From the IMG/VR virus record IMGVR_UViG_3300030207_004217, positions 1-64,000 of that record: a DNA stretch of 64,000 nucleotides, one strand, 5' to 3'. This document shows, one piece after another, positions 1 to 43,336 of the stretch (position 1 is the first letter of the stretch; each line of letters begins with the position of its first letter). Made by a program: the position numbers and the translations under genes. The notes beneath the pieces were generated by a model. That model did no database searches. It saw only the letters and a program-made list of their open reading frames with translations, and was not told the DNA's origin. This DNA comes from a virus. Its lineage: Duplodnaviria > Caudoviricetes.

Positions 1-12
1 CAACGAGTTACG
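1..12. repeat. Partial copy (right arm CAACGAGTTACG) of the 79-bp double-palindrome element, truncated by the window edge
   Basis: Identical to the right arm at 1020-1031; followed by an A-tract and promoter like the other copies. Confidence 0.8.
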
Positions 13-107
13 AAGGAAAATCATGCACACTTCTCTGGGATGTCAAACAGAAAATGAAATTATTTTTGTCAAGCAGAAAAAAAATAAAAATAAAAGTGAA
101 AAAAGGG

Positions 108-135
108 TTGCACAAAATCAAAAATGTGGTAAGCT
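108..135 (+). promoter_or_regulatory. Sigma70-type promoter, probably giving a leaderless mRNA
   Basis: TTGCAC-16-TAAGCT with TGTGG extension and upstream A-tract; ATG at 142 lies 6 nt after the -10; no SD. Confidence 0.65.
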
Positions 136-141
136 TCTTTC

Positions 142-909
142 ATGTTGATACTCGCTAAAAACAAAGTCGAGTCCGAGCAGTTGGCGCAGGTGCCAACTCC
201 GTCAGCTACGGACACCCACACACCAATTCCACACGCGCTCCTCGCAGATCGCACACGCAACGTCATTGACAAGGCGGGGCTGTCGATCACCGAAGAGGAA
301 CACGCGCTTGCGCGGGATGGTCAGCGTTACTTCGGTGGCTTCGCTCTCAAGGGCGATGCGCTTGGTGGCGATGACTCTCGCAAGCTTGTGCTTGGTCTTC
401 GCAACGCACACGACAAGTCCTTCGCGGCTTCCGTCTGCATCGGCAATTCCATGATGGTTTGCGAAAATCTTTGCTTCTCTTCGGATGTGAAGCTCGCTCG
501 CCGTCACACTGTCAATATCCTTCGGGATCTTAACACAGTGCTATCGTCTGCCGTTAGTCGCGTGACCTCGCACTGGGTTGACATGGGCAAGCGCATCTCC
601 TCTTACAAGGAGACTGAGATCTCCCGCGAGTCGGCTTCCAACTTGGTTGTCGATCTTGCTGAGATGGGCGCGTTTCCCGCTCGCTCCGTTTACAAGGCGG
701 TGCAGGAGTTCCGCAATCCTCGTCATGAGGAGTTCAAGGGCGGTTCGCTCTGGACACTCTACAACGGGGTGACCGAACACTTGAAGGGTGGCGACCTTTC
801 CAAGTTGCCACAACGCACGATGACCACTCAGTCGATCTTCGACAAGATCGCGGGACACGCTCCCGAGATCGTCGAAGTTGAAGCCGAGGCCGTCGAGCTT
901 CCCGCTTAA
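142..909 (+). CDS. DUF932-like phage protein
   Basis: 255 aa; motifs PTPSATDTHTPIPH, LGLRNAHDKSF, VCENLCF, SLWTLYNGVTEHLK resemble DUF932; GC much higher than the rest of the window. Confidence 0.7.
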   Translation: MLILAKNKVESEQLAQVPTPSATDTHTPIPHALLADRTRNVIDKAGLSITEEEHALARDGQRYFGGFALKGDALGGDDSRKLVLGLRNAHDKSFAASVCIGNSMMVCENLCFSSDVKLARRHTVNILRDLNTVLSSAVSRVTSHWVDMGKRISSYKETEISRESASNLVVDLAEMGAFPARSVYKAVQEFRNPRHEEFKGGSLWTLYNGVTEHLKGGDLSKLPQRTMTTQSIFDKIAGHAPEIVEVEAEAVELPA

Positions 910-942
910 CCCATAACTGGCCCCGCCAGTTACCTACCACGG

Positions 943-975
943 ACCCGCATCCCGCAAGGGGTGCGGGTTTTTTTT
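943..975 (+). terminator. Rho-independent terminator
   Basis: ACCCGCATCCC-GCAA-GGGGTGCGGGT stem with GNRA loop followed by a T-run. Confidence 0.9.
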
Positions 976-1002
976 CTTGACATGGGTTTTAGTAAGAAGT
1001 CT

Positions 1003-1081
1003 CGTAAGTCGTTGAGACTCAACGAGTTACGGCGGCGCGGCCCCCGCATCGTCGTAACTCCTTGATACTTAGGCACTTACG
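1003..1081. repeat. 79-bp double-palindrome element, copy 1
   Basis: CGTAAGTCGTTGA-GAC-TCAACGAGTTACG (1003-1031), 21-bp GGCGCGG linker, CGTAACTCCTTGA-TAC-TTAGGCACTTACG (1053-1081). Confidence 0.95.
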
Positions 1082-1111
1082 AGGAATCGTCATTTTTTAA
1101 TCATTTAAATG

Positions 1112-1139
1112 TTGACTGGTCGGCTATTTGTGTTATACT
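1112..1139 (+). promoter_or_regulatory. Sigma70-type promoter
   Basis: TTGACT-16-TATACT with TGTG extension; in-frame ATG at 1149. Confidence 0.75.
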
Positions 1140-1148
1140 ATGCGGGTA

Positions 1149-1331
1149 ATGGAAAGACTAACTACTAAATCATTTACTGTTTATTATACAGAAGAGGGCG
1201 GCAGAGAATATTCTCGTTCCGTCATTAATAATACTGGCAAGGTATATAATATATCTCAGTTTGCTAAAGACAACTGTCAAGACCTAGACATTACCTTTTA
1301 TCAGGTTGAAATAATGAAAGAGGAGGACTAA
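1149..1331 (+). CDS. Hypothetical protein
   Basis: ORF directly after the promoter; start moved to ATG 1149. Confidence 0.6.
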   Translation: MERLTTKSFTVYYTEEGGREYSRSVINNTGKVYNISQFAKDNCQDLDITFYQVEIMKEED

Positions 1332-1333
1332 TC

Positions 1334-1558
1334 ATGGCTAACTCATATAATATATCCAAAACTGATATAGCTAGAATCCCTGCCCCGTTTGACTTTACGT
1401 TTGAGTGGGACAATGGAACAGAAAGAACATTTATCGTTGTTTCATTGCATGGTGCGAAGGCACTAGCCGAAACATTTGAAAACTTCGGTTACGAACGCGA
1501 AGAGGGAAGCATTAAGTTTATGCAAGGCAAAGCATGGACTCCCTTGAATAAAAATTAA
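1334..1558 (+). CDS. Hypothetical protein
   Basis: 74-aa ORF, AGGAGG upstream, tightly packed. Confidence 0.7.
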   Translation: MANSYNISKTDIARIPAPFDFTFEWDNGTERTFIVVSLHGAKALAETFENFGYEREEGSIKFMQGKAWTPLNKN

Positions 1559-1565
1559 TTTTTAA

Positions 1566-1593
1566 TTGACAACACCCGCTTTTGTGGTATACT
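1566..1593 (+). promoter_or_regulatory. Sigma70-type promoter, leaderless
   Basis: TTGACA-16-TATACT with TGTGG; ATG at 1600 lies 6 nt after the -10. Confidence 0.8.
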
Positions 1594-1599
1594 ACGCAC

Positions 1600-2286
1600 A
1601 TGTCAAAGCTCCTTAACTCTGGAAACTATAAAACCCGCAAGGGCGAAAAATACGGTTGGAAGACCTATGGCTTGCACCTTGCACCATTTAACTTATCAGG
1701 AAAAAATGTTTGTTCTTCTGCTACTGTTGGTTGTTCTACTGCTTGCCTCAATACTGCTGGTCGTGGAATCATGCATTCCGTTCAAGATGCCCGAATTAAA
1801 AAAACAAGAAGGTTTTTCGAAGATCGGGATGGATTCTTATCGCAGTTATACAAAGAAATCCAAAGCTCGGTTAAAAGCGCAACGCGAAAAGAATTAAAGA
1901 GTTGCTTCCGCTTGAATCTCACAAGCGATCTCCCGTGGGAGAGCTTGGTTGTAAAATACTTTCCAAGGCTACAGTTTTACGACTATACCAAACACCTAAA
2001 AAGATTCGTTAGGTTTCTAGAGGGTAAGTTCCCGTCCAACTATCACCTCACATACTCCCGCAGTGAAGAGACACCTGACGCGCTAGTAAAGAGCTTGTGC
2101 GCAAGTGGTGGTAATGTCGCCGTGGTTTTCCGCAATCACCTGCCCGACAAATGGCTTGGACTTGAAGTGATCGACGGGGATGATTCCGACTTGCGCTTTG
2201 AGGATGGCAAGGGTAAGATTGTTGGGTTGCTTGAAAAGGGACTCGCCAAAAAAGACAAAACAGGATTTGTTGTTGAACCAGAATAA
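1600..2286 (+). CDS. GP88-like phage protein (Cys-motif, radical-SAM-related)
   Basis: NVCSSATVGCSTACLNTAGRG, FRLNLTSDLPWE, QFYDYTK, NYHLTYSRSE, VIDGDDSDLRF motifs typical of the GP88 family. Confidence 0.75.
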   Translation: MSKLLNSGNYKTRKGEKYGWKTYGLHLAPFNLSGKNVCSSATVGCSTACLNTAGRGIMHSVQDARIKKTRRFFEDRDGFLSQLYKEIQSSVKSATRKELKSCFRLNLTSDLPWESLVVKYFPRLQFYDYTKHLKRFVRFLEGKFPSNYHLTYSRSEETPDALVKSLCASGGNVAVVFRNHLPDKWLGLEVIDGDDSDLRFEDGKGKIVGLLEKGLAKKDKTGFVVEPE

Positions 2287-2290
2287 ACCA

Positions 2291-2449
2291 ATGAAAGAAG
2301 AACTCCAAGAAATACTAGACGACCACAGGTCACAGATAATTGATATGCTCAAGGAAGATGCAGAAGAGGCTCTCGTTGTAGATGTCGAAGCGAACCTTGA
2401 CCGTATGATAACCGAAATAAACGAATTGTTAGGATCTAGCTATGACTAA
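2291..2449 (+). CDS. Small acidic hypothetical protein
   Basis: MKEELQEILDD...; ATG 4 nt after the previous stop. Confidence 0.6.
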   Translation: MKEELQEILDDHRSQIIDMLKEDAEEALVVDVEANLDRMITEINELLGSSYD

Positions 2450-2585
2450 AAACAAACCAACAGGCATAGTCGAGCAAATGCGCGAGGCTAAAACTAAAAA
2501 AGAAAAGAGTGCGCTAATGAAAAAAGCGCGAGGCTACAAATACATCAGCCCCAAGACTCTACGAAAGCTCGAAAGGCTTTCGTAA
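2442..2585 (+). CDS. Small basic hypothetical protein (47 aa, not in the ORF track)
   Basis: MTKNKPTGIVEQMREAKTKKEKSALMKKARGYKYISPKTLRKLERLS; its TAA stop is supplied by the CGTAAC of the repeat. Confidence 0.55.
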   Translation: MTKNKPTGIVEQMREAKTKKEKSALMKKARGYKYISPKTLRKLERLS

Positions 2586-2659
2586 CCCACTCAGGGTCAA
2601 GGAGTTACGAGGGCGCGGCCCTCGCGCAGTCGTAACTCGTTGAGGTTCAACGAGTTATG
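2581..2659. repeat. 79-bp double-palindrome element, copy 2
   Basis: CGTAACCCACTCA-GGG-TCAAGGAGTTACG (2581-2609), 21-bp linker AGGGCGCGGCCCTCGCGCAGT, CGTAACTCGTTGA-GGT-TCAACGAGTTATG (2631-2659). Confidence 0.95.
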
Positions 2660-2700
2660 TGTCAAGTAAATAAAAAATGCATTTTTAATAATAAAAAAGG

Positions 2701-2729
2701 TTGCAAGGGTTCTAAGTGTGTGTTATACT
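2701..2729 (+). promoter_or_regulatory. Sigma70-type promoter
   Basis: TTGCAA-17-TATACT with TGTG extension, upstream A-tract; ATG at 2739. Confidence 0.75.
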
Positions 2730-2738
2730 TCTTGCGTT

Positions 2739-3113
2739 ATGGGACTAGATCAATACGCAAAAAAAGTAAAGAGAGAATACAATCATGAAACTCTCACCGA
2801 GACAATCGTCAAAACTGAAATAGGTTATTGGCGCAAACACAATGCTTTAGAGGGCTACATGGCAGATCTCTATCGCACTAAGACAGGAGATCAGGGAGAG
2901 TTTAATTGCAAGACTCTTACTCTTGATAAGGATGACTTGGACACCTTGGAAGCAGTAATCGAAAGGGGCAACTTGCCTGAGACCGTAGGTTTCTTTTTTG
3001 GTGATTGCACCAAGGACAATAAGGAATACAAAGAAATAGACCTTGAGTTTATAGCCAAGGCTAGGAAATGTCTTGCAAATGGCTTTGATGTAGAGTATAC
3101 TTCTTGGTGGTAA
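2739..3113 (+). CDS. Conserved phage hypothetical protein (MGLD...YWRK type)
   Basis: MGLDQY...EIGYWRKHNAL...LPETVGFFFG...VEYTSWW pattern common in phage early genes. Confidence 0.75.
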   Translation: MGLDQYAKKVKREYNHETLTETIVKTEIGYWRKHNALEGYMADLYRTKTGDQGEFNCKTLTLDKDDLDTLEAVIERGNLPETVGFFFGDCTKDNKEYKEIDLEFIAKARKCLANGFDVEYTSWW

Positions 3114-3322
3114 TGAATATAATCAGACACATAAGCCCCGATAATAGATTTTTATATAATATAAAATATCATGATGACCGCACTCTTGATACTATCGGCA
3201 TACATCTTCTTTTACCCGAAGGCGTATGGAGTCCTTCGATTCCTCTCTGGGATTTCCCGTCAGAACAGATCGAAGAGATTACACATATGTGTTGCGAACT
3301 CATTGAAAGAGTTATACCTTGA
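3113..3322 (+). CDS. Hypothetical protein
   Basis: TAATG stop/start coupling with the previous gene. Confidence 0.6.
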   Translation: MNIIRHISPDNRFLYNIKYHDDRTLDTIGIHLLLPEGVWSPSIPLWDFPSEQIEEITHMCCELIERVIP

Positions 3323-3402
3323 ACGCAGGGTATAAAAAAAATGCAAGAATCCTTAATAGTTTTTATAGTTTTAGTAACCGTAGTAGTAATAACTTTTTGT
3401 TC

Positions 3403-3579
3403 ATGAGAGAAGGAGCATATAACAAGCAACAAGTCCGTAGCGACCGACAAACGCAATACATAACTCACCTTTCTAAAACTGTTGGTGATGCTTGCGACAG
3501 GTGGCTAGCGGAAAAGGGTCTGAAAGGTAAAAGCTGGAAACAGCAAAACGACGAAATGTTTAAGAAGAAAGTTTTATAG
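3403..3579 (+). CDS. Small basic hypothetical protein
   Basis: MREGAYNKQQ...; upstream TGCAAG...TATAGT promoter-like sequence. Confidence 0.55.
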   Translation: MREGAYNKQQVRSDRQTQYITHLSKTVGDACDRWLAEKGLKGKSWKQQNDEMFKKKVL

Positions 3580-3589
3580 TGAGGAGTAT

Positions 3590-3691
3590 GATTCTGGTTA
3601 GGAATAGAGTGCAAAGAGAGCTTGCAACACGGCGTAAGGGGTTTTAACGATTGCTCCGTTGGTCGCCGTCATTGAACACCTAACCAGAATC
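3590..3691 (+). ncRNA. Candidate structured RNA (multi-stem junction)
   Basis: Perfect 13-bp closing stem GATTCTGGTTAGG/CCTAACCAGAATC enclosing TGCAA/TTGCA, ACGGCG/CGCCGT and AACG/CGTT stems; fills the intergenic gap. Confidence 0.5.
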
Positions 3692-3701
3692 CAATAAAAA
3701 T

Positions 3702-3947
3702 ATGAAAAAAAGAATACACATCAACCAACATAAGATCCGCAGTAATGCCAAGACAGGGGAGAGAGAACCTGTCATCACAGTTAAAACTTATAAAACAAAC
3801 GATTACTGTCACACGGTTGTAATCAATTCTCCGTGTAAAGTAATATACTCACCAGATAATCCACTGCCATGTGGTGCCAAGGTCTGGATCGAAACTGAAG
3901 GGGAAATCCTTTGCGATGAAAAAGAAGAAAATAAAACTGCCAGCTAA
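3702..3947 (+). CDS. Conserved phage hypothetical protein
   Basis: IHINQHKIRSN...EPVITVK...VIYSPDNPLPCGAKVWIET pattern seen in many phages. Confidence 0.75.
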   Translation: MKKRIHINQHKIRSNAKTGEREPVITVKTYKTNDYCHTVVINSPCKVIYSPDNPLPCGAKVWIETEGEILCDEKEENKTAS

Positions 3948-4071
3948 CTCGCTAGAGGGAAGGAATATGGTGCGTCACCCGATGCCACCACCTACCACTA
4001 GTCACACGGATAAAAAGAAGCAGTTAGATAAGAAAAGTTGCCGTAACTCGTTGAATACCAATGAGTTGTGA
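3916..4071 (+). CDS. Small basic hypothetical protein
   Basis: MKKKKIKLP...PMPPPT...KKSCR; 3' end runs through the first palindrome of repeat copy 3. Confidence 0.45.
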   Translation: MKKKKIKLPANSLEGRNMVRHPMPPPTTSHTDKKKQLDKKSCRNSLNTNEL

Positions 4072-4120
4072 GGGCGCGGGGGCTTTTTCGTCGTAACTCG
4101 TTGAGTATCAGTGACTTACA
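4042..4120. repeat. 79-bp double-palindrome element, copy 3
   Basis: CGTAACTCGTTGA-ATA-CCAATGAGTTGTG (4042-4070), 21-bp linker AGGGCGCGGGGGCTTTTTCGT, CGTAACTCGTTGA-GTA-TCAGTGACTTACA (4092-4120). Confidence 0.95.
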
Positions 4121-4137
4121 GATGATGATTCAAGGAT

Positions 4138-4164
4138 AAAAAAAACCGCACAAACGTGCGGTTT
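4138..4164 (-). terminator. Terminator at the convergence of + and - gene blocks
   Basis: AAACCGCAC-AAAC-GTGCGGTTT stem with an A-run on the left (T-run on the - strand). Confidence 0.75.
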
Positions 4165-4197
4165 CATTATTTGATTATTAAGGCTTTAACCTACAAC

Positions 4198-4722
4198 CTA
4201 AGCTTGGATTTTATATGGACTGCTGTCAGTATTATTATTTGCAACTGATACAACCTTAAGCTTACCTAATGTCTCTGCCTTCTTGCCTTGGAGCCAAACT
4301 CCATCCCAATTCTTATGCCTTGGCTTGCGGTGATAATGTCTATATACCTTACCTGTATCTTTATTAATCAGCATATATTTGCCTTCTATTGTATTAACAT
4401 TGCCACCCCTATCCTTGGACTTGTAGCAACGCTCGGGTCGTGCGCCCACCTTGACGCACATCCGCTTCCACACAGCATCGTGTCCATGCCCCCGCCCCGT
4501 AAGGGCGTGGGCAATCTCATGGAGAACAACGTCTTTACTTTCTTCGATTGTATTAATCAAAGCAAGCTTCTTTGTAACGCCGATCTCCCTCTGCCTATAC
4601 CTGCATTGTCCATATCTACGGACTGCTCTATTATCCCAAACAAACGTCCAGTTTTCTTCTATTAGCCCCCATTTCTCCATTTGCTCCATAGCAAACTGTT
4701 GTATTTCTATTAGCTTGTTCAT
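4198..4722 (-). CDS. SprT-like zinc metalloprotease
   Basis: RRYGQC, VVLHEIAHAL, GHGHDAVWKRMCVKVGA..ERC; start set at MNKLIE. Confidence 0.85.
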   Translation of the reverse strand: MNKLIEIQQFAMEQMEKWGLIEENWTFVWDNRAVRRYGQCRYRQREIGVTKKLALINTIEESKDVVLHEIAHALTGRGHGHDAVWKRMCVKVGARPERCYKSKDRGGNVNTIEGKYMLINKDTGKVYRHYHRKPRHKNWDGVWLQGKKAETLGKLKVVSVANNNTDSSPYKIQA

Positions 4723-4787
4723 TGGAATGTTGTTACTATTATTGTTACTACTATTACAAAAACTAACCACCATTGATATAATGTCAT

Positions 4788-7254: not shown

Positions 7255-7330
7255 TGGTAGCGGGAGTGGGACTCGAACCCACACTTGAGCGATTTTAAGT
7301 CGCTTGCCTCTGCCATTGGGCTATCCCGCC
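7255..7330 (-). tRNA. tRNA-Leu(TAA), 76 nt, short variable loop, encoded CCA
   Basis: GGCGGGA acceptor stem, anticodon arm AGCGA-CTTAAAA-TCGCT, T-arm GTGGG-TTCGAGT-CCCAC, ACCA 3' end. Confidence 0.92.
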
Positions 7331-18004: not shown

Positions 18005-21000
18005 TTATCCGTATCTCCAGTAAGATCCATCAGAGTATACTGGGGCAACAGCACTTCCTCCTGCGTATACTGTTTGTCCTATTGTAGAAGAACCAAACGT
18101 GTAATAAGAATCATTTACCATAGCTCTCTGTCCTGCTGGGGAAGCTGAAGGTAACGAACCAATAGCGTAAACTTGTGTTTGAATAGTGCCTTGAACTTCT
18201 AATTTTGAAGATGGGGCTGTTGTCCCTATTCCCACATCACCATCTGAAGCTATTGTGACCCCAGCAGAAGCGGAACTTGCTCCACCGTTAGGTCTAAATC
18301 TAAACCCTTTACTAGTAGCAGCAGCAAAATACATGTGGTCACTAGACTTGGCAAAAATCCTGTGGTGACCGTTTGTTAAGTTTGTGGTCCCGATACCAAT
18401 AGCTCCATAAGTGCTTCCATATGTGCCCTCTGCACCTAGAGTCATGCTTGATTCAGCGCGAATTTCTCCATTTACATCAAGCTCCGCTGATGGACCACTT
18501 GTTCCTATGCCAACTTTTCCATCGCCTTGCACTTTTAAATAACTTGTTCCCGCTAAACTGCTGGCTTCAAAGGTAACATCTGAAGCGTTTGAACCTCCAT
18601 CTACTTTTAATCCATAGTTAGCTCCAGCAGTAGCTTCTGTATTAGTTATTCTAGCAACATAGTCGCCGTCTTGTTCTGCTTTAACATGAAATGTTTGTGT
18701 TGGATTTGTTGTCCCGACACCCACAAATGGACCATCATTAGTCCCATGTATGGTGAGTCCTACCTCTTCTGAACCTGCGGTAGCTTTAACGCCAAACCGC
18801 ATATCAGTTCTATATGCACTTGAGTTTGTTCTTACCCATATGCTACCTACTTCATTTGGTGAAGAGGAATAATCTGTTTTAAATTGTATCCTGCCTATAT
18901 CTGTATCAGTGCTTGGATCAGATCCACCTCTACTGATCTGCATTTCTGCTATGGCATTTTCTTTATTTAAATGTAATTGATGTGCTGGATCAGTTGTTCC
19001 AATGCCAACATTTCCTGCGTCTTCGATAACCACAGCGCTTGCGTTATTGCCTACAATGGTGGTGGAGCTAGAACGATAGATTATATTTGCGCTATTTGCA
19101 GAGTTATTGTAAACATCTGCTTGGACTCTTGATGTAGAGCTTGATTTAATTACTCCTGCTACTTCAAGTTTAGCATCTGGATCAGTTACTCCTATACCAA
19201 CAAAACCTCCTGTGGTAAGACGCATCTGCTCATGATTATTTATATCATAATCATCACTGGTATTCCCTGTGACATTAGTATGGAAAGTTATTCCTTTATT
19301 GTAGTTTAAAGCAATATAATTACCTGCATCGCCTTTTGTTCTTCTGAATGTATTATTTGTGGTTCCTGCATATACCGCATTACCTAAAAGTGTCGATGCT
19401 CCACCTTTTGTCTCACTTAATGAGGCATAATTTATAAGCAGTCCACCTTCTGAGAATCCATTTGTTCCTAATTGAGTTTTACCATCAACATGTAAAAGTT
19501 GATTTGGTCCAGTTGTTCCAATACCAACATTACCGCCGTCTAAATAACTACTTCCATTAGAATCAAGTAAAACTTTTGTTACTCCTCCAGCATTGTTTGC
19601 ATATAATCTACCAGCACTACTGGAATTAGTCATTCCAGCAACTTGAATATTTGAATTGTTTAGGTGAACAATTGTGCCTTTTACAGAAAGTTTTTGTGGT
19701 GGATCATCTGTTCCTATGCCGACTTTATTGCCAGCTATACGCATTTGTTCTGCTACAGTTCCATTACCTTCTCCCGCTGTATTCGCATGGAAAGCTAAAT
19801 AGGTTTCTGTGCTGGCTGAAGGGTCAGTGTAACTTGATCTTAAAAATGCTGTATCGTATTGGGTTGTAAACCCTAATTCTCCAGTATTAGTGTTAGTAGA
19901 TCCAGCATCTATTAATACATCTCCTACTACATGAAGTTTTTCATCTGGACTATCTGTTCCTATACCAACATCACCATCAGAAGCTATCGTCATTCTGGTT
20001 TCCCCTACAGTCTGGAACATCATTGTTTGTGCAGATTGGTTTGCACCAATGACACCTGTAGAACTACTAACGAATAAATCTAATCTTTTGTTTCCACCAG
20101 AGCTAGATTCTTCCAGTCTTATAAACGGCTCTGCTCCTCCAATTTGTAATTGTTTGTTTGGGCTGGTTGTCCCTATACCAACAGTGCTTCCCTTTATAGC
20201 AAAAGTTTCAGTGCTGCCAAATGCCATAAATGCAAGGCGTGGACTTCCTGCGCTGGTTACCCTAACTTTCATACCAGCGTAATCCCAACCAGCATGATTA
20301 CTAGCTCCTGCCCTCAATAACCATTCATCAGCCCCACCAGCGTATGAGGTAGGAGTAGCATAAATTCCTCCTCCATGAATATGTAATTTAAGATCTGGGT
20401 CTGTAGTTCCTATACCAACATTTCCTGTAGCATCAAAGTTAATAGTTGCAGAATCTAGAGAGGTGGCATTTGGTCTAAATCTTAACTTATCGTCAGTTGT
20501 AGATTGAATCCAGTATCTATTAGCTCCATCTCTAAATTGGATGTAAGCAGAATAGTCATTATGCGCCATGATTTGAGTAAATGCATGGTTGTTTGAAGAT
20601 TGAATTCTTAAACCATTATTACCATCAGCATAAATATGAGCCGCTTTTTGCGGGGCAGTTGTTCCTATACCAACACTACCAGCAGAAGCATCTACATACA
20701 AAGTATCGGTATCAACATAGAAATCACCTCCATTATCAATTGCAGCTTTTGTCGCGTTAGCGATATTAAACCCAATACTTCCTCCTGCTTTAACATTTAT
20801 CATAGTGTTGCCAGCACTATTTTGTTTTATAGCATAATTACTAGTAGTGGCAAAATCAACATGGCCAAAAAATGCGCTATCAGCTTGCCCCATGTATCCA
20901 ATATGCGCTCTACCTAGAATAGCACTTGAATCGTTATCAGGATTTACTTCTAGTCTTTCACTAGGATTGGTAACTCCAATACCCAAACGCCCCTGTGATG

Positions 21001-24000
21001 TCAGACGCATCTTTTCGGTTTCACTACCAGCAAGATGGCTGTCGTGCATGGTGTAAAACGCTATGTTTGTTTGCAGGTAAGATGGGTTATTATTTGTCCA
21101 TACATTGGCTATTTTACTTGAGTAAACACCACCTGCTCTACCCATAATAATGCCAACTCCATTTCCAGCAGTTCCTGTTGTAGATACATTATTATGAATA
21201 AGTAATCCTGAAGTAATCTCATGCAATGAATCAGTTTGAACTTCTAATTTAGTAGATGGAGAACTTGTTCCTATACCGACATAACCATTAGTCGCAAAAG
21301 TCGCAGCCGTTCCGTAACTTTGGGGCTGTATTCTTATTACTCCATCAGCTTTAACATTTAAATTATTACTATTCTTCGCCCATATTTCATTATTATCTAA
21401 ATATAGCGTAGATCCTATGTTTACTTGACCTCCATGAGAAACAGTAAAGTAAGCTCCCGTGCTGGATTCTAGTCTTAAACCAACCCCATTAGTAGTAGAA
21501 CTATCAGTTCTAATATCTAATTTAGCTCCAGCAGAAGTATTTCCTATAGCAACATTACCGCCTTTTTCTATATGTAATCTGCTATTAGATCCACTTGTAA
21601 AGAAATCATATGTTCCAACAGGAGAACTTGCGCTTCCTGCATAAAATCTAAATCCATAAACCAAACTAGATTGCTCTCCAAGATCTATGTAGTTGGAGTT
21701 AGATAAAATTAGATTTCTTGCATAACTAGTAGAAAAGGCTCCTTTCAAGCCTCTCCCAGCAGTATTCATGAATATAGCACCATTCTGATTATCTGTTCCA
21801 GCCCAACTAGCATCACCTTTAACTATCATGGAACCTTCAGCATGAAGCTTCGCTGATGGATCGGTAGTTCCTATACCCACTCTACTACCATTACCATGAT
21901 CTAAAACATTTAAAGCAAGGTCGTCATCAAGGCTGCATGATGAAAGTGAAGTTGTATTATACCCAGTTTCTTTAAAGATAAAACCTTCTATTTCAATATA
22001 TTGATTAAAATATTTTGTTCCTGTAGGATCGAGGAAGAAATCTGTTTTGGTGGCATCTCCATCTCTATTTTTATATTTTAAATCTATATGAATGTCGGTA
22101 TCTTCTCCACCACCTTCAACAGTTATTGATGGATAGTTTGTGCCGCTAGAGTTTTGAACAACAACACGAACAATTCTAAATACTTTTTCTGCTCCATCAT
22201 ATATTCTGATAGTGAAACCTGCTGAGTCTCCATTTCCGTATTGAGTAACTGTTCCAATGTAACGTGTGACATCAGCCATTGCCACCTTCATGTTCATTCT
22301 GTTTTTTGAGTCGTTCCTTAATGACCCAGCAAGACCTGTTACATTTCCACCGTAAATATGGAGTTTTGATGTTGGGCTAGTTATGCCTATGCCTACATCT
22401 CTAGTGTCCTCCTCGATATACATCGCCGCAGTAGGAGAACTTGATACGCCTACATCAAACTGTAAGGCAGCATCACTTCTTACTTTTGCTACACTGCTTT
22501 GATTTCTAAAGTAAATGCTTCTATCAGTATTCCCCGCACTGTCCAACCTCATATCACCACGAAGATCTAATTCTTCTTGTGGGTTTGTTGTGCCTATACC
22601 GATTCTATTAGTTGAGCTATCTACAAATAAAGTATTAGAATCAAAGTTTACATCACCGTCAAAAGCTGTGCCGCTTGAGTTACCAATTTGTAAAGTTCCT
22701 TGGTCATTAAATAAAGAACCTCTAACTCGCAAATTGTTTTGCACATAAGCTCCAGCACTTGCAGAAACATAAAAATAATTATGATCTACAACTACAACAC
22801 CATCATTCCTAACATAAAATAATTGAGCAGAAGAACTATCTATACATTGTAGCGCATTTGTAGAGGCATCACTTGTGCCGCCTTTGATTCTAACTCTAGA
22901 TGTAGATGGATCAGTCATTCCGACAGCTAGACTGCCACCGCCAATCCAACTGTCCCCATTAGTGTTAAGTCTAATGTCCTCGTTGACAGTGCTATCGTAT
23001 AAACTCAAGTAAGCATGTGATGAGGAAGGTCTAACCTTAAATTTAAGATTGCCTGATTCTCTTAATTCTATGCCATCTTCATTGCCATCACTGCCGACAG
23101 TTAATTTTGTTTGCGGATTAGTTGTTCCTATACCGACATCGCCTACATCATCAATCCGCATCCTTTCGGTTCTGTCAGTAACAAAACCTATTTCATTTGT
23201 AGCGGGGGAATAGAAACCTACTTCATCAGAACTTTCATTTCTTAAATTAATAGCTAAATTTGTTGGCGCTTGGTTTGCTATATTAAATACAGCACGAACA
23301 CCACTGTATACAAAATCATATTGTGAAAGCTCTAAAAACCTACCTGCATAACCTGATCCCTGAATTCTAAATCTACCATTATTTGTTGCGAAAAGACCAA
23401 ATTCTTGATTGGCGTAGTAATTGTTTAGGGCTAAAATAGAAGAGCTTACGCCATCATAATCTGAAGTATTGGCTCTTTGTTTTAATGCTTTTACATAACC
23501 TTCTGCTGTCCCGTGGAAAGAAGCGTTTCCACCACTTGTTGCAAGAGTCTCTGAGGGATTAGTTAATCCTATCCCGACATTACCATTAACATCAACCCTC
23601 ACTCTTTCTGTCCCCGCTGTGATAAACCCAAGCTCATTTGACGACATCCTTGACATGCCCATATTGACATTATCATAGAAACCATAATCAGCCTCAGTAG
23701 CAGAACCTGCACTACTAACAACCATTCTGCCTTTGCGAGAAGAATTTCCGATAACTAATGTTAAATCTGCTTCGCCAGTAATATGGAAGGAAGCTCCTCC
23801 ACCTTGTGATGACCCATCTGAATGTTTATAGGTTATGTTTGCAGGTTGTAGATTAGTAGATTGATCGTCAAATCGTATAGTCGCTCCATTGCCATTACTA
23901 GAGTTTTGAAGCGTTAATAAAGGAAGATCTGCTCCAAGAGAGGCTTTTATATCTAATGGAGAGCTAGGATTAGTAATTCCTATACCAACATTGCCACCAT

Positions 24001-25684
24001 TTTTTATAGTTACTTGTGCTGTTCCTGCGCTAGTTAAAATGCGTTGATCATTAGACCCTATTCCATACCAATCTTTAGTATATACGGCTGTATTCGCGAC
24101 TAAATTAGTATTGATTTCAGCATCACCTTGAACATGTAAAGTCCTAGTTGAAGAGGGTCCAGTTGTTCCAATCCCCACATTACCAGCAAAAAATGCCCCT
24201 GTATCAGAAGAAGGAGTATTTAATATCTGTTGTAAGGTTGGTGTGCTTGCTTCTAATGGCTCAAATCTTGGTCCCCACCAGTAAGTTTTAGAACCTGTGG
24301 TAGCATCATAGTAGTTATAAACTCTTTGTCTTGATGTATTCCATTGACTGCCTAATCCATCAGTAGGGCTACCACTATCAGTAAACTTAAAAGAAGTGGC
24401 ACTGTATATTTTTTTACCATTTCTATCATAGATACCCCCATCTGGATGATGAGTCGTTCCAGTATGACCACTATCATAAATATAGCCAACCATCAAATAC
24501 CACTGACCAGTCTCCATACCAGCAGTAGCCATTGTCGCTCCACCAATAAAATATGGGTTACTGTTATAAGTGCTATTAGAAATATTAGCTACAAAACTGG
24601 TGCCTAAATATAAATTACCATCACTTCTATTAGTTGTGATCTTTTTAACCCAAACGGAAGTTCTATATGATTTGCCTCTATCTATAACAAAGGTATCTGA
24701 ATTCCAACCACCATCAGCATTGTCGCCAGTATCATTACTAGGAGTATGCCACAAGATAGCGGGTTCTCCGAACGGGTTTTCGCCATAAATTCTCTCATTC
24801 TCTTCTGTGGTTCCATTTTGTGGGAAAGAAGGAGTCGAGCCGCTTGATTGTGTTCCATAAAGATTCCACTCATAAGGGCGTAGCAAGTTGCCATCAACAG
24901 CACCTTTATGCGGTAAAACATTGCCTCTTTGGTCTAAGCCCCACGCATTTGCATGGTTACCTGCCTGATTGTTGCTGTCACTAGCAGAAAAAGTATCTAT
25001 GGTTAGGTAATCTAATCCTCCATGACCACCATTAGATTCATAATTTATTTTTACTCCATAAGTATCACTTTCTTGGAGCCAGAGAGTCGCAGTATTATCA
25101 CTTGTAGAGCTATCTCTAATCTTTAGAACAGGGTCACTCCCATGTATGTGAAGGTCTGCTGAAGGTGTTTGTGTTCCTATACCAACAGAGTCTGCTGATT
25201 CGTCTACATAAAAAGTGTCAGTATCTACAAAGAAATCTGAATTATAAACACCAAAACTAGAACCAATAATTACTCTGTTTTCGCCTCTGTAAAAGGTGAT
25301 CTCGCCATTAGAATCTGTAACAAGGGAAAGATCTGTTAATTCGTTACCTATAGTGCCATTTCCAAACTCGATATTTGCCTGTGTAGAACCTATTCCTATA
25401 TATTTGCCATTTGCTGTGGTTATATTGCCAGCCAGTGATAAATTAGAAGATGTGCTTGCTCCTCTAGCAGTAACAGTAGCTAAAGTATCACCCTCTGATG
25501 AGCTACTTCCAGTAACAATAGGATTCCCTCCAATTGTAAGAGACCCTGCATCCACATTAAAATTACCAGATAATTTGATAACGTGTGTGCTAGAATCTAA
25601 TAAAATAGAAGCCGCCCCTGTCGTTCCGCTTCTAAAGTTTAATCCAGAAGCGGTTAGGTAACTATTTACTGTGGTTATTGCCAT
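18005..25684 (-). CDS. Long modular tail-fibre / adhesin-like protein (2559 aa)
   Basis: Many GNVGIGTT.P...L.V repeat units typical of trimeric phage fibres, interspersed with globular inserts. Confidence 0.85.
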   Translation of the reverse strand: MAITTVNSYLTASGLNFRSGTTGAASILLDSSTHVIKLSGNFNVDAGSLTIGGNPIVTGSSSSEGDTLATVTARGASTSSNLSLAGNITTANGKYIGIGSTQANIEFGNGTIGNELTDLSLVTDSNGEITFYRGENRVIIGSSFGVYNSDFFVDTDTFYVDESADSVGIGTQTPSADLHIHGSDPVLKIRDSSTSDNTATLWLQESDTYGVKINYESNGGHGGLDYLTIDTFSASDSNNQAGNHANAWGLDQRGNVLPHKGAVDGNLLRPYEWNLYGTQSSGSTPSFPQNGTTEENERIYGENPFGEPAILWHTPSNDTGDNADGGWNSDTFVIDRGKSYRTSVWVKKITTNRSDGNLYLGTSFVANISNSTYNSNPYFIGGATMATAGMETGQWYLMVGYIYDSGHTGTTHHPDGGIYDRNGKKIYSATSFKFTDSGSPTDGLGSQWNTSRQRVYNYYDATTGSKTYWWGPRFEPLEASTPTLQQILNTPSSDTGAFFAGNVGIGTTGPSSTRTLHVQGDAEINTNLVANTAVYTKDWYGIGSNDQRILTSAGTAQVTIKNGGNVGIGITNPSSPLDIKASLGADLPLLTLQNSSNGNGATIRFDDQSTNLQPANITYKHSDGSSQGGGASFHITGEADLTLVIGNSSRKGRMVVSSAGSATEADYGFYDNVNMGMSRMSSNELGFITAGTERVRVDVNGNVGIGLTNPSETLATSGGNASFHGTAEGYVKALKQRANTSDYDGVSSSILALNNYYANQEFGLFATNNGRFRIQGSGYAGRFLELSQYDFVYSGVRAVFNIANQAPTNLAINLRNESSDEVGFYSPATNEIGFVTDRTERMRIDDVGDVGIGTTNPQTKLTVGSDGNEDGIELRESGNLKFKVRPSSSHAYLSLYDSTVNEDIRLNTNGDSWIGGGSLAVGMTDPSTSRVRIKGGTSDASTNALQCIDSSSAQLFYVRNDGVVVVDHNYFYVSASAGAYVQNNLRVRGSLFNDQGTLQIGNSSGTAFDGDVNFDSNTLFVDSSTNRIGIGTTNPQEELDLRGDMRLDSAGNTDRSIYFRNQSSVAKVRSDAALQFDVGVSSSPTAAMYIEEDTRDVGIGITSPTSKLHIYGGNVTGLAGSLRNDSKNRMNMKVAMADVTRYIGTVTQYGNGDSAGFTIRIYDGAEKVFRIVRVVVQNSSGTNYPSITVEGGGEDTDIHIDLKYKNRDGDATKTDFFLDPTGTKYFNQYIEIEGFIFKETGYNTTSLSSCSLDDDLALNVLDHGNGSRVGIGTTDPSAKLHAEGSMIVKGDASWAGTDNQNGAIFMNTAGRGLKGAFSTSYARNLILSNSNYIDLGEQSSLVYGFRFYAGSASSPVGTYDFFTSGSNSRLHIEKGGNVAIGNTSAGAKLDIRTDSSTTNGVGLRLESSTGAYFTVSHGGQVNIGSTLYLDNNEIWAKNSNNLNVKADGVIRIQPQSYGTAATFATNGYVGIGTSSPSTKLEVQTDSLHEITSGLLIHNNVSTTGTAGNGVGIIMGRAGGVYSSKIANVWTNNNPSYLQTNIAFYTMHDSHLAGSETEKMRLTSQGRLGIGVTNPSERLEVNPDNDSSAILGRAHIGYMGQADSAFFGHVDFATTSNYAIKQNSAGNTMINVKAGGSIGFNIANATKAAIDNGGDFYVDTDTLYVDASAGSVGIGTTAPQKAAHIYADGNNGLRIQSSNNHAFTQIMAHNDYSAYIQFRDGANRYWIQSTTDDKLRFRPNATSLDSATINFDATGNVGIGTTDPDLKLHIHGGGIYATPTSYAGGADEWLLRAGASNHAGWDYAGMKVRVTSAGSPRLAFMAFGSTETFAIKGSTVGIGTTSPNKQLQIGGAEPFIRLEESSSGGNKRLDLFVSSSTGVIGANQSAQTMMFQTVGETRMTIASDGDVGIGTDSPDEKLHVVGDVLIDAGSTNTNTGELGFTTQYDTAFLRSSYTDPSASTETYLAFHANTAGEGNGTVAEQMRIAGNKVGIGTDDPPQKLSVKGTIVHLNNSNIQVAGMTNSSSAGRLYANNAGGVTKVLLDSNGSSYLDGGNVGIGTTGPNQLLHVDGKTQLGTNGFSEGGLLINYASLSETKGGASTLLGNAVYAGTTNNTFRRTKGDAGNYIALNYNKGITFHTNVTGNTSDDYDINNHEQMRLTTGGFVGIGVTDPDAKLEVAGVIKSSSTSRVQADVYNNSANSANIIYRSSSTTIVGNNASAVVIEDAGNVGIGTTDPAHQLHLNKENAIAEMQISRGGSDPSTDTDIGRIQFKTDYSSSPNEVGSIWVRTNSSAYRTDMRFGVKATAGSEEVGLTIHGTNDGPFVGVGTTNPTQTFHVKAEQDGDYVARITNTEATAGANYGLKVDGGSNASDVTFEASSLAGTSYLKVQGDGKVGIGTSGPSAELDVNGEIRAESSMTLGAEGTYGSTYGAIGIGTTNLTNGHHRIFAKSSDHMYFAAATSKGFRFRPNGGASSASAGVTIASDGDVGIGTTAPSSKLEVQGTIQTQVYAIGSLPSASPAGQRAMVNDSYYTFGSSTIGQTVYAGGSAVAPVYSDGSYWRYG

Positions 25685-25711: not shown

Positions 25712-28700
25712 CTACATCTTCCTAATCATTGCTTTTATATTATATGATTCTCCATCACCGCTCTCCATAGCTTGAGCGATAATGGTTCCCAACTTTTCTT
25801 CTTTCATAGCTTGCCCGTGGCCTTGTTTGCTTGAAGTAACTATGTAATCACCAACTTTAATTGGTCCTGTTACAAGAATAGGCTCTGCTCCAAGCACTAC
25901 AGGTGAATCAAAGTCTCTCTTTGTAACACCAAAAACTAAAGTGTCGTTTTCCTTCTCGCATGGCTTAAGTTCTCCATCTTCGTCCATTACAAGGACTGTG
26001 CCATCGGTATAGAATTTTAGTTTGCTGGAGGATGCGTTCTCCTCCAAGTAAGCACCACCTATGTAGTATGTGGATCTTGTTGTTCCCACTACATCAAGTT
26101 CATAGGATGGACTCGTAGTTCCAATTCCGACTCCATTTACCCCTCCACCAAAGTCTGAATCGACAATGGTCATCTTGGTGGAATCGTCTATATTAAATCT
26201 AATATAATTATTTCCTACAGCATTGAAACGGTTATGAGCCATTTCCATGTAGTGAGAAGCGCCATAAGAATTTCTTATTCCGTAGGTGTCGGCTCCATTT
26301 GTTGATACATCAAGTTTTCTAGCTGGAGATGTGCTACCAATACCAACATTGCCAGCGTCAGTAATAGTAAATAACTCTGTTCCTCCATCACTATTTAAGA
26401 AGCGAGTTCTATTAGAGCTTCCCCTAAATTCTAATTGGTTGCTAATTGCTGATGCTCTAAATAAATCTGCGCGAACTGTTGATAAGTCGAAGTTAACAAT
26501 ATCCGAATTAGTAACCTTTATCGCCTCAGAGCCGTTACCTGCAATGGTTAAGCGACCACTCTGTAAATGGAGTTTTGTGTCAGGATCACTGGTTCCAATT
26601 CCAACATTACCTTCTGCTGTGAATCTTGCTACTTCAGTAGCAGCAGAAACTCCGCTTGTGGTAATTCTTACATAATCACCTCCTATTTTTAATGGGTGCG
26701 GGGTAGAGGTATCTCCATCAGAGGCTAATATTCTACCCTCATTCCCAACAGAGGGAGTTATAGTTATAGCGTCATTGTTTGCTGGATATCTGATTTTTAA
26801 AGCGCCGTTCTCTATCCTCGCCGCAGTTCCTCCATCCCCGTAAACATGAAGGGCTGATTGAGGGGAAGTTATTCCTACTCCTACTCTATTATTACCTCTG
26901 TTTATGACTAAAGCATCTTCACCTAATTCTGTATTCCTAATACGGAACATGTCATTATTAGCTCCACCAGCATATTGGTTTTCAATCTCCCAAGTAGTGT
27001 ATGTTCCTGCTAATTTAAGGTGTGGACCAGCACTCCCAGCCCCAGTTACGAGAATGTTTCCTGAGACCGCAAGTTTTTCAGATGGTTCAGTTGTTCCAAT
27101 ACCAACCTTACCCTCTGTGATAATCATATCAACAGTGCCAGCTTCATCTACTCCGTTTCTGGCAAATGTTATAGTATCATTAGATCCACCATTATCTGAA
27201 TCATAATTAATAAACAGAGAGCCTTTTGCGTTTATAGCAGAAGTATTAGAACCCAAGAAATCAATTTGTTGTCTTGAAGCTCCTCTTGTAGTTATTTCTA
27301 CTCCATCAGAACCATCTTTAAATTTTGCAAGGCTATCAGAAGCAGCGCCAGTAACATGAAGTCTTGTATTTGTTACACCTGCCGCACCAACATTTAAAGT
27401 GCCAGCACTGTTAAGGGACATCAACGTGCCAGCGCTGTTCCTGAAAATAGTGGCTCCCGCGTTAGCTTGTGAAATATAGTTATTACCGCCATCTAAATAA
27501 TTTAAATGTGTGGTATATGCAGAACTTGAAGTAATCTGAAATTCTGCATTTTTAACTCTAGTATCTCCATCAACATCAAGTTTTTTAGCAGGGATTGTTC
27601 CTACGCCGACATTACTACCAGATAAAACTAATTGTGTTCCTGCTGCGTTTGCTACGCTGTTGATTCTGAAAGTGCCATCATTATAAGTGTTAAGTTGTCC
27701 ATGACTATTTGGGTCACTTATTGTAAGTATAGATACATTTGTTCCTGAAATTCCGACTTGAGCATTACCTGCATTGTATACAGATAAGTTTTTAGAAGGA
27801 TCAGTTGTTCCTATGCCAACATTACTATTAGATCCTTTAACGAAAACAATAGGACTATTGTTTACATTCATGCTAACATTCATGCTTGCTTTAGCATTGA
27901 TAGCTGTAGATCCAGCAGGGCTTTGCTTTAAAGCATAACTTGTTGAAGTAGCATTATCATAATGAGATAAATATAAATAGTCGGTTACATGAGATCCAAA
28001 TCTTGCCCTGCCCAAGAAAACATTTTGGTCGGTATCAGCTTTAACATCTAGCAACCCTTGAGGAGTTATCGATCCTATACCAACATCGCCATCAGGTTTT
28101 ATAGCCACTCTAGCCTCACCACTTGTGGCTAAATAAACACTTCCAAGAGCTTGTCTGTTAGTAACATAAGCATCATGACCATTATTTCCAATAGTCATAC
28201 CCACGTTGCTCATCGTTCCATAGCTTGTCGTGCTATTCTGGAATTGAAGATAAGCTACTGTCCCCGTGCTTCTTAAATGTGCTAGAGCGTATCCACCAGT
28301 AATTGTTAAAGCTCCATAATCAGGATCACTACCTGCATTATTTATTATGATATTATTAGTTGTAGTGTTTCCTTGATCAGTAACAGTCTGCAATGTATCT
28401 GACTCAAAAGCAGAAGTTCCAGTGACAACAGGATTACCATCTATAGTAATACCATTTTCAAAGTTTCCGCTTGTGCCGTGAATTGTTCCATCAACGTCGA
28501 GTTTATAAGCTGGATTAACTGTCCCTATTCCTACATTGTCACCATTAGAAGCATTTAAAGCTAACTTACCATCATGCTGTAATGTTATTTCTGCTCCTCC
28601 ATTACCATCATAGGTTATAAAGAAATCACTATCCGCAGAATCATCTACAAAATATTGGCGAACGGTTTCTGTAGGGTTTGTGAAGATTAATCCTAAATTA

Positions 28701-43245: not shown

Positions 43246-43336
43246 GGTCTTGTTTTAATTGTAGATAGAAAGTCTTATTTTTTAAAGATAAAAATAACTC
43301 AATTGATTTTAAAACACTTTTAATTAAGGTAAGCAT
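43070..43336 (-). CDS. Putative i-spanin
   Basis: N-terminal hydrophobic helix plus coiled coil; Rz/Rz1-like overlap. Confidence 0.5.
   Translation of the reverse strand: MLTLIKSVLKSIELFLSLKNKTFYLQLKQDHEEERKRIIQELEDIRANGGDADRADLLRDELIREDNSFKHLSAFYSEFDKRDSNRNK

Follow-up and report, generated by a model that had tools for sequence, protein, structure and literature searches.

The phage record IMGVR_UViG_3300030207_004217 in IMG/VR (Duplodnaviria; Caudoviricetes) is 106,590 bp long, and we analyzed its first 64 kb (positions 1 to 64,000, called the window here). The early region at the left end of this window is punctuated by a 79-bp element in which two 29-bp palindromes flank a short G+C-rich linker. 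We put the probability at roughly one half that these elements are paired sites on duplex DNA for a dimeric architectural or regulatory protein, supplied by the host and acting at the borders of early gene cassettes.

Three copies of the element were found by reading positions 1-4400, at 1003-1081, 2581-2659 and 4042-4120, and in all three a 21-bp G+C-rich linker separates two 29-bp palindromes. A repeat finder recovered the six 29-nt palindromes as one family (D1) starting at 1003, 1053, 2581, 2631, 4042 and 4092, that is, at start-to-start distances of 50, 1528, 50, 1411 and 50, and with 66-100% identity to the reference copy. When up to three mismatches are allowed, the consensus palindrome has two matches, compared with 0.00 expected from 100 shuffles. 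A weight matrix for the half-site, applied to all 106,590 bp of the contig, scored the 12 window arms at 12.0-22.3 bits and detected no further inverted pair in the contig, only lone half-site matches of up to 16.1 bits. Element 1 comprises palindrome A (1003-1031; CGTAAGTCGTTGA GAC TCAACGAGTTACG; seen by both repeat finder and matrix), its linker (1032-1052, + strand) with a GGCGCGG core, and palindrome B (1053-1081), the left arm of which reads TATCAAGGAGTTA on the - strand while the right arm is degenerate, at 12.0 bits. In element 2, palindrome A (2581-2609) contains the stop codon of the open reading frame (ORF) at 2442-2585, the linker (2610-2630, + strand) forms a small G+C hairpin, AGGGC-GCG-GCCCT, without a T run, and palindrome B (2631-2659) is the best copy in the window, one mismatch from the consensus. 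Element 3 consists of palindrome A (4042-4070; repeat finder and matrix), a linker (4071-4091, + strand; AGGGCGCGGGGGCTTTTTCGT) that is G-rich and then runs into Ts, and palindrome B (4092-4120), which recurs as an identical 29-mer in a related phage (L042).

A second repeat family (D6) ties positions 1-16 to the right arms at 1020 and 2598, and positions 1-12 (CAACGAGTTACG) are therefore the right arm of a palindrome cut by the start of the contig. Since the record is 77% complete and has linear ends, the first of which is window position 1, this remnant marks a contig break; it is probably what is left of the second palindrome of a fourth element, and an A/T-rich stretch and a promoter come next. 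An earlier reading of this DNA, made from its letters alone (the sequence-only reading), had described the three copies and the remnant, and had seen no copies in the rest of the window; the sequence and the repeat finder bear out the former, and the latter extends to the whole 106.6-kb contig. Its statement that all copies face the same way also stands, because the asymmetric GGCGCGG core occupies positions 3-9 of every 21-bp linker, in three of three copies.

To follow the element beyond this contig, we assembled a set of at least 119 IMG/VR stretches by an exact scan for one arm plus TCA. Among these matches listed, at least 106 loci have one or more palindromes that score 20 bits or higher, at least 85 hold a pair of palindromes 29-75 nt apart and at least 64 a pair exactly 50 apart, with more than 500 palindromes in about 1 Mb of matched loci in all. 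The loci are kin of the phage, carrying homologues of PhoH, the sigma-like protein, terminase-side genes, DUF932 and GP88 in 18-44 of the matches listed. When strong palindromes near locus ends are set aside, 408 of 414 have a partner 29-75 nt away, and the pair is therefore the unit and pairing is obligate. The sequence-only reading had described the spacing as invariant. This is true inside the window, where the distance is always 50, and fails in the homologues listed, in which 50 is the mode (138 cases), followed by 58 (30), 51 (15) and 52 (8), with 49, 48, 53 and 60 also found (a range of 48-60) and spacings of 34-44 occurring in triplets and quadruplets of palindromes. The one relative searched as a whole genome (G001; 147.7 kb, CheckV 100% complete) has 14 palindromes forming seven elements in two clusters and no match to a reversed control pattern, and across the matches listed the number of elements per phage genome runs from 3 to more than 10. 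The complete relative also carries a 3.28-kb stretch twice at 99.4% identity (20000-23281 and 144371-147652; L249/L250), each copy adjoining one element cluster, which could be a long repeat, a terminal redundancy or an assembly join.

The variation among these copies was used to ask whether the palindromes are read as duplex DNA or as a folded strand. Watson-Crick pairs between the arms number 4205 over the 428 unique palindromes, and exchanging right arms at random between palindromes yields 4207.7 ± 19.6. An alignment of the 146 unique 50-spaced elements has base pairs in 83.3% of its cells; the shuffled value is 82.8 ± 0.3, and 38 of 500 shuffles reached the observed figure. The compensatory base pairs that would indicate an RNA structure are thus in no excess over chance in either set. 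Column pair 6/24 is unpaired in 79 of the 146 elements, 9/21 in 82 and 10/20 in 50, and A4, A5, T11, A19, T25 and T26, together with their counterparts in the second palindrome, are invariant in 146/146. We also considered one long hairpin, in which outer arm pairs with outer and inner with inner, and rejected it, the complementarity being below that of shuffles (z = -5.7 and -3.6). The window copies fold in three different ways, as one long hairpin, three hairpins or two hairpins, and Rfam 15 gave no match to the element at E up to 5, only matches below the gathering score at the terminator near 4103-4257. Because the arms do not covary, bases are invariant, the folds differ and no Rfam family matches, we take the element to be read as inverted 13-bp half-sites on duplex DNA, two to a palindrome, and the data indicate that the palindromes would serve as double-stranded half-sites and not as hairpins. 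The preference of the sequence-only reading for a protein-bound DNA architecture over an RNA hairpin is upheld by the chance level of arm complementarity and the invariant bases, and also by an orientation to transcription that is not fixed.

The anatomy of the site resembles that of IHF sites. The palindrome has the skeleton TAA-N4-TTGA-N3-TCAA-N4-TTA, so that both halves carry TCAA-N4-TTA. In an IHF site, as set out in an excerpt of PMC1874591, WATCAA starts near the centre with TTR four bp on, and two base steps, mostly AA, stand nine bp apart where prolines intercalate; the invariant bases of the palindrome coincide with the consensus elements given in that excerpt. Around the dyad, nine bp separate the TT step at 10/11 from the AA step at 19/20, and T11 and A19 within them never vary in the 146 elements. 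Among the matches listed, 378 of 428 palindromes have TCAA-N4-TTR on one strand or both, and 221 of 428 have the full 13-nt consensus WATCAANNNNTTR; in the window 8 of 12 arms have TCAA-N4-TTR without the WA. The sequence-only reading had pointed to positions 1055-1067 on the - strand as an exact consensus match, and TATCAAGGAGTTA does match WATCAANNNNTTR; the likeness is in fact stronger than was claimed, as TCAA-N4-TTR lies on both sides of the dyad. It had also held that the central 3 bp vary freely, which applies within the window only, since GTA/TAC accounts for 125 of the 428 unique palindromes, TAA/TTA for 69 and ATA/TAT for 32, a bias that would supply the WA of the IHF consensus. By its sequence, then, the palindrome is a candidate two-fold symmetric double IHF-type site.

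Bacterial genomes, too, contain this 29-bp site, in single copies and not in pairs. Allowing up to two mismatches to the degenerate palindrome, genome-wide counts in five metagenome-assembled genomes were 7, 16 and 16 for Fibrobacter (three genomes), 17 for Akkermansia muciniphila and 14 for a member of the Saprospiraceae, with 0-1 matches to the reversed control pattern in the same five genomes. Sampling of two phyla at up to one mismatch found the site in 11 of 31 genomes of Fibrobacterota and in 4 of 41 of Verrucomicrobiota, with no control match. In 14 bacterial regions that we fetched, the copies lie in spacers beside argS, dnaA, a protease gene, a glycosyltransferase gene and others; a copy in Saprospiraceae lies 8-12 nt past a tRNA gene, and one Pseudomonas genome has an identical 25-mer five times, the examined copy (L165) about 450 nt upstream of a 16S gene. 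A scan of genome contigs with a 16-base pattern in 596 Gb was dismissed as evidence for a host, since it was near chance (about 280 matches expected, and 83 of 120 loci without a palindrome), and its value lay in pointing to genomes with many copies. Pfam searches of the ORFs beside the bacterial sites revealed no regulator and no coherent regulon.

Since some bacteria have this site beside their promoters, its binding protein probably does not come from the phage, as far as can be judged from these genomes. Neither this contig nor the complete relative has an HU/IHF gene (PF00216), and each of the five site-bearing bacterial genomes has two to five genes of this type; weak sites or half-sites upstream of 3 of 11 of these bacterial genes are a hint only. 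Classical heterodimeric IHF is not known from the phyla that supplied most of the bacterial copies examined.

Some further features of the flanks deserve mention. A GTTCC-N-GGAAC palindrome follows the element in one related phage (L089; 10343-10380 and 13862-13890), and a similar palindrome follows the single palindrome upstream of argS in Akkermansia (L252); this motif resembles the LexA box reported for Verrucomicrobia, and would be a possible clue to the host. In four Akkermansia loci (L253, L254, L256 and L258) a 13-bp GCATT-N3-AATGC, then TG and a -10-like hexamer, lie on either side of 29-bp palindromes. In one Fibrobacterales genome (G006, contig 94, 31.3-41.1 kb; L265) four palindromes within 10 kb have identical flanks of at least 60 nt on both sides, which suggests a duplicated module or mobile unit.

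The position of the elements relative to genes and promoters was analyzed in the 146 unique 50-spaced elements. Co-directional ORF pairs flank 91 of them, convergent pairs 18 and divergent pairs 16, and 21 lack an ORF call on one side; 35 of the 91 co-directional elements start no more than 18 nt past the upstream stop codon. A strict promoter classifier found almost nothing, the -10 boxes often being atypical, and distance histograms were used instead. Of 268 element sides, 63 have an inward-facing TTGAC at a distance of 34-38 nt from the edge, and in 40 of these 63 the distance is exactly 37 nt; such a box is present on both sides of 15 elements and on a single side of 33. With a -35 box 37 nt out, transcription would start at the first base of the palindrome. 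A reading of GTAAC...CGT as a promoter for an extracytoplasmic function (ECF) sigma factor was ruled out by its spacing. In the window the promoters face away from the elements: TTGACT-16-TATACT with a TG extension (1112-1139, + strand) begins 30 nt past element 1, with ATG codons behind it at 1140 and 1149, and TTGCAA-17-TATACT with TG (2701-2729, + strand) begins 41 nt past element 2, with an ATG at 2739; both are preceded by A/T-rich stretches. Six related loci (L018, L036, L039 in the complete relative, L083, L089 and L101) have CTAACAG twice, about 11-12 nt apart, between the inward TTGACA and the element, at most about 35 nt from the element edge, and this motif is absent from the early region of the window. 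Tandem operators or nucleoid-protein sites at early promoters, one of three functions put forward by the sequence-only reading, is the option that fits best, the site being found also in promoter-proximal spacers of bacteria.

In the mechanism that we propose, each 29-bp palindrome would be a duplex site for a dimeric, sequence-reading protein, most likely a DNA-bending protein of the HU/IHF kind or a global regulator, provided by the host. A homodimer of the HU/IHF fold might be expected to prefer just such a symmetric TAA-N4-TTGA-N3-TCAA-N4-TTA. This phage lineage would place obligate pairs of the site around a short G+C-rich spacer, in some relatives an intrinsic terminator in its own right, at the borders of early cassettes driven by sigma-70 promoters, where the bound protein could make a compact, bent nucleoprotein block that insulates neighbouring transcription units. 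The block would also tune or shut the adjacent early promoter, lying upstream of the promoter in this phage and at +1 to +79 in many relatives. Since the same stretch of about 80 bp recurs at every border, it may in addition serve as a portable region of homology, by which cassettes could be lost, gained or put in another order. A bolder version, which we advance tentatively and would not expect to hold in full, is that this is an undescribed symmetric double IHF-type site of a homodimeric protein found in scattered bacteria (Akkermansia, Fibrobacter, some Saprospiraceae and the marine phage host), which an abundant uncultured phage lineage has made, in pairs around a G+C-rich core, into a portable border module that programs early transcription and drives the exchange of early, probably anti-defence, cassettes.

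Several observations weigh against the proposal of a host-supplied dimeric protein, or restrict it. The element counts come from related phages and are not phylogenetically independent. The palindromes differ from an IHF site in being symmetric and obligately paired, with T7, C8, G22 and A23 also conserved. The canonical A-tract of IHF sites is absent from the alignment of 146 elements, the other half of the palindrome being a mirror consensus, which points to a homodimer-type and not a classical IHF site, and only one of the six window palindromes has the full 13-nt consensus. T7, G22 and A23 fall within the 'N4' of IHF and are at least 90% conserved in the 146 elements, a stricter specificity than that of E. 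coli IHF, and the protein could well belong to another family. No helical phasing is seen in the spacing, and strict cooperative binding is therefore not indicated; the distance to outward promoters ranges over 24-136 nt (n = 37) with no fixed value, which argues against a position-dependent activator. A factor passed on horizontally, or a mobile sequence, could likewise account for the patchy spread among bacteria. Finally, the two palindromes of one element share polarity (44 concordant, 5 discordant), with arm similarities of z = 3.0 between a1 and a3 and z = 4.7 between a2 and a4, and of 31 elements with one inward promoter only, 28 have a spacer that is G-rich in the direction of that promoter. 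Neither the shared polarity nor the direction of the G-rich spacer is predicted by a purely symmetric protein-site model, and no model explains the promoter-directed spacer well.

The palindromes could alternatively be operators of a regulator encoded by the phage itself, an early shut-off repressor or a switch for middle genes, with the bacterial copies belonging to related resident regulators. A -35 box 37 nt away and a start at the palindrome's first base is classic operator geometry, the elements are confined to early regions, and many small early ORFs have no known family. The same site in the spacers of unrelated bacteria, near dnaA and argS and upstream of an rRNA operon, speaks against this, and no helix-turn-helix or other DNA-binding family appears among the matches listed for the 74 window ORFs (25 of 39 families). 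In the window, moreover, the sites precede the -35 box by 30-41 nt, a distance too great for occlusion. We consider operators of a phage regulator possible but unlikely.

A function in RNA or single-stranded DNA has to be weighed chiefly on the spacer and the flanks. Such a function could be that of a compound terminator or attenuator, an RNase III-type site, a stabilising hairpin at a 5' or 3' end, or a small RNA made from the inward promoters. The spacers have a mean G+C content of 0.877. That of the 58-nt class reads GCGACCCC-(TTCG/GAAG/GTAG/TACG)-GGGGTCGTTTT, with loops of the UUCG type, and is in the sense orientation in 8/8 elements shown for one locus (L053) and 8/8 for another (L065); its structure and direction therefore make it an intrinsic terminator between two palindromes. 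In the 51- and 52-nt classes the spacer has different G+C hairpins, GCGCGGGC-CAG-GCCCGCGC and GGCGCGGCATGCCGCGCC. T runs follow the element in 33 of the 91 co-directional cases on the sense and 48 of 91 on the antisense side, against a background of 17 in 182, the fold of window copy 1 has z = -6.9, arm differences compatible with G-U pairing are commoner on the sense strand (171 vs 124), and a transcript from an inward promoter would start at the element edge and run into the G-rich spacer. Against this, in 39 of the 91 elements neither side has a T run, and the flanks of the 91 oriented elements form no closing stem. The 21-nt spacers of the 50-nt class, those of the window included, fold no better than shuffles (z = -0.31), the window spacers having only a 3-5-bp GGGC-GCG-GCCC stem. 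Polarity is independent of gene direction (TAC 37 vs GTA 39), and the arms, as described above, pair at the level of shuffles with invariant stem bases and no Rfam match. We therefore judge an RNA or single-strand role rather improbable. A CRISPR mini-array was also considered and ruled out, the spacers being of low complexity and G+C-rich.

Recombination at the elements was the first option of the sequence-only reading, and gene content between copies does differ across relatives. The window has the order element-A-element-B-element-C-element for its three gene units; one relative (L104) has element-C-element-A-element-B-element, another (L099) is without unit C, and a third (L110) is without the element between B and C. 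In the closest relative (L060), indels of small genes lie away from the elements. Short Logan contigs from four marine metagenome runs have joints inside the elements, from 1037 to 4092, from 1045/1047 to 2631/2632 and from 2627 back to 1005, so that copy 1 is joined to copy 2 or 3, and copy 2 back to copy 1; each side of these joints is 27-37 nt long with 90% likeness, which is unreliable in metagenomes, and they give only a hint of circles or deletions. In three of the four marine runs, contigs skip the 47-amino-acid ORF at 2442-2585 together with palindrome A of element 2 (joints from 2448 to 2625/2634), and this ORF and half of element 2 may be variable in the population.

These data could be read as site-specific recombination or transposition, with the elements as lox- or dif-like, integron attC-like or REP/REPIN/MITE-like sites that move cassettes, and the elements are multi-copy, intergenic, present in both orientations and open to parsing as 13-3-13 or 11-7-11. 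The option survives in the weak sense that cassettes are reordered, and loses its dedicated enzyme: matches to Phage_integrase (PF00589) and Resolvase (PF00239) number zero in this 77% complete contig, which extends the earlier statement that the window has no recombinase gene, and zero in the complete relative with its seven elements, and Y1_Tnp (PF01797) also has no match in this contig. The central triplet differs between copies, leaving no shared crossover region as a recombinase core site would have, hairpin complementarity is not kept, and copies within one genome have diverged to 66-86% identity, unlike the products of recent transposition. Homologous exchange at the repeats would fit better than a site-specific system; the phage has a UvsX-like recombinase, and we hold a site-specific system to be quite improbable. 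Least probable, in our view, are signals for DNA entry, replication initiation or packaging (stops in stepwise injection, R-loop origins or pac-like sites), for although the elements cluster near one contig end next to the terminase-holding block of relatives, and G-rich transcripts directly downstream of promoters, such as these would be, favour R-loops, the copies are many and dispersed, with two clusters in the complete relative, and the same site is single in bacterial promoter regions.

Among described repeats, the BIME or RIP elements of enterobacteria consist of a pair of REP palindromes with a linker between them in which an IHF site can lie. They share with the phage element two palindromes around a short linker, an intergenic position, often at gene ends, and a link to an architectural protein. 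In these elements the REPs form hairpins and the IHF site is in the linker, whereas the phage palindromes are themselves IHF-like and free of selection for a hairpin, and their linker is G+C-rich; a RAYT-type transposase was not found in this contig (PF01797). The PeSL cassettes of T4-like phages combine, according to excerpts of PMC2839356 and PMC4122927, a strong sigma-70-like promoter, preceded by A/T-rich sequence, with a G/C-rich stem-loop, and mini-circles have been shown for them. From the same excerpts, PeSLs and the phage elements are alike as short repeated intergenic modules in plastic early regions, the stem-loop varying in position relative to the promoter, and both are tied to indels and swaps of small genes without annotated function between close relatives. 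The promoters past elements 1 and 2, and the fixed-distance inward promoters of the relatives, match the promoter feature of PeSLs. As far as those excerpts describe it, the common part of a PeSL is the promoter plus stem-loop, without a conserved palindrome pair; the conserved part of the phage element is two 29-bp protein-type sites, with promoters as optional neighbours. PeSLs are thus the closest analogue in role and the IHF site the closest in anatomy. The halovirus HF2 has repeated 29- and 58-bp intergenic sequences tied to promoters (PMC8707807, in excerpt), and these likewise punctuate a virus genome; they differ, in a comparison by description only, in belonging to an archaeal virus and in being A/T-rich promoter repeats without a dyad-symmetric pair. 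We found no description of the motif or of such repeats in the full-text literature, a coverage outside of which subscription journals fall.

The + strand from 1 to 4120 is a series of small early-type units separated by the elements. Promoter-like sites of the form TTGaca, 16-17 nt, TGnTATACT start at 108, 1112, 1566 and 2701. Unit A is a DUF932 gene (142-909) behind a sigma-70-like early promoter read from the sequence (TTGCAC, 16 nt, TGgTAAGCT; 108-135, + strand); its ATG at 142 leaves a 5' leader that is very short or absent. An intrinsic terminator of this unit, a 13-pair stem followed by a T run (941-970, + strand), ends 33 nt before element 1. The gene has a G+C content of 53% in a genome of about 37%, which, together with its changing place among relatives, suggests recent acquisition. 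Unit B has two small ORFs and a GP88-family gene (1600-2286), whose ATG at 1600 lies behind a second promoter of this unit, TTGACA-16-TATACT with TG (1566-1593, + strand), that has no element upstream. Unit C has several small ORFs without a Pfam family. Beyond element 3, a bidirectional intrinsic terminator (4143-4164) stands where the + strand early region meets the - strand genes, among them a SprT-like gene at 4198-4773. Early genes begin 6-10 nt past the -10 box without a Shine-Dalgarno sequence (130-142, 1134-1149, 1588-1600 and 2724-2739, and also at 105.6-106.0 kb of the contig, L248), from which the early mRNAs may be leaderless or nearly so, a possible hint to the type of host. At the other end of the contig (105.6-106.6 kb) the + strand has promoter cassettes of a similar kind, none of them with palindromes.

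The phage encodes a B-family DNA polymerase, a clamp loader, a DnaB-like helicase, the UvsX-like recombinase, PhoH, a sigma-70 region 2 protein, a terminase and two tail-fibre-like giants. The latter are adjacent ORFs on the - strand (18005-25684 and 25712-33652; 2559 and 2646 amino acids) without a Pfam family, which match tail-fibre PHROGs and have repeated stretches; these matches ruled out their being a phage RNA polymerase. A sugar-nucleotide gene cluster (43323-44162, 57294-62439 and neighbours) encodes a GDP-mannose dehydratase, epimerases, cytidylyltransferases and glycosyltransferases and is accompanied by a DUF1599 'nucleotide modification associated' domain, and from these gene predictions the phage may modify its own DNA or make a glycan. 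A nucleotide search of the first 8 kb against known phages matched only a tRNA-Leu gene (anticodon TAA; 7255-7330, - strand), and there is no close cultured relative: alignments of the large terminase with cultured phages cover 52-59% of its length at no more than about 27% identity. The window stretch is present in marine metagenome sequencing runs.

The 29-bp site provides a sharply defined and easily synthesised probe with which a DNA-binding protein could be caught, one that seems to act on strong promoters of several little-studied bacterial phyla and of an abundant group of marine and freshwater phages. The element is also a sequence handle for the early regions of uncultured phages, where anti-defence genes are expected, and it suggests that plasticity of the PeSL style exists outside the T4-like phages, built on a protein site instead of a stem-loop.

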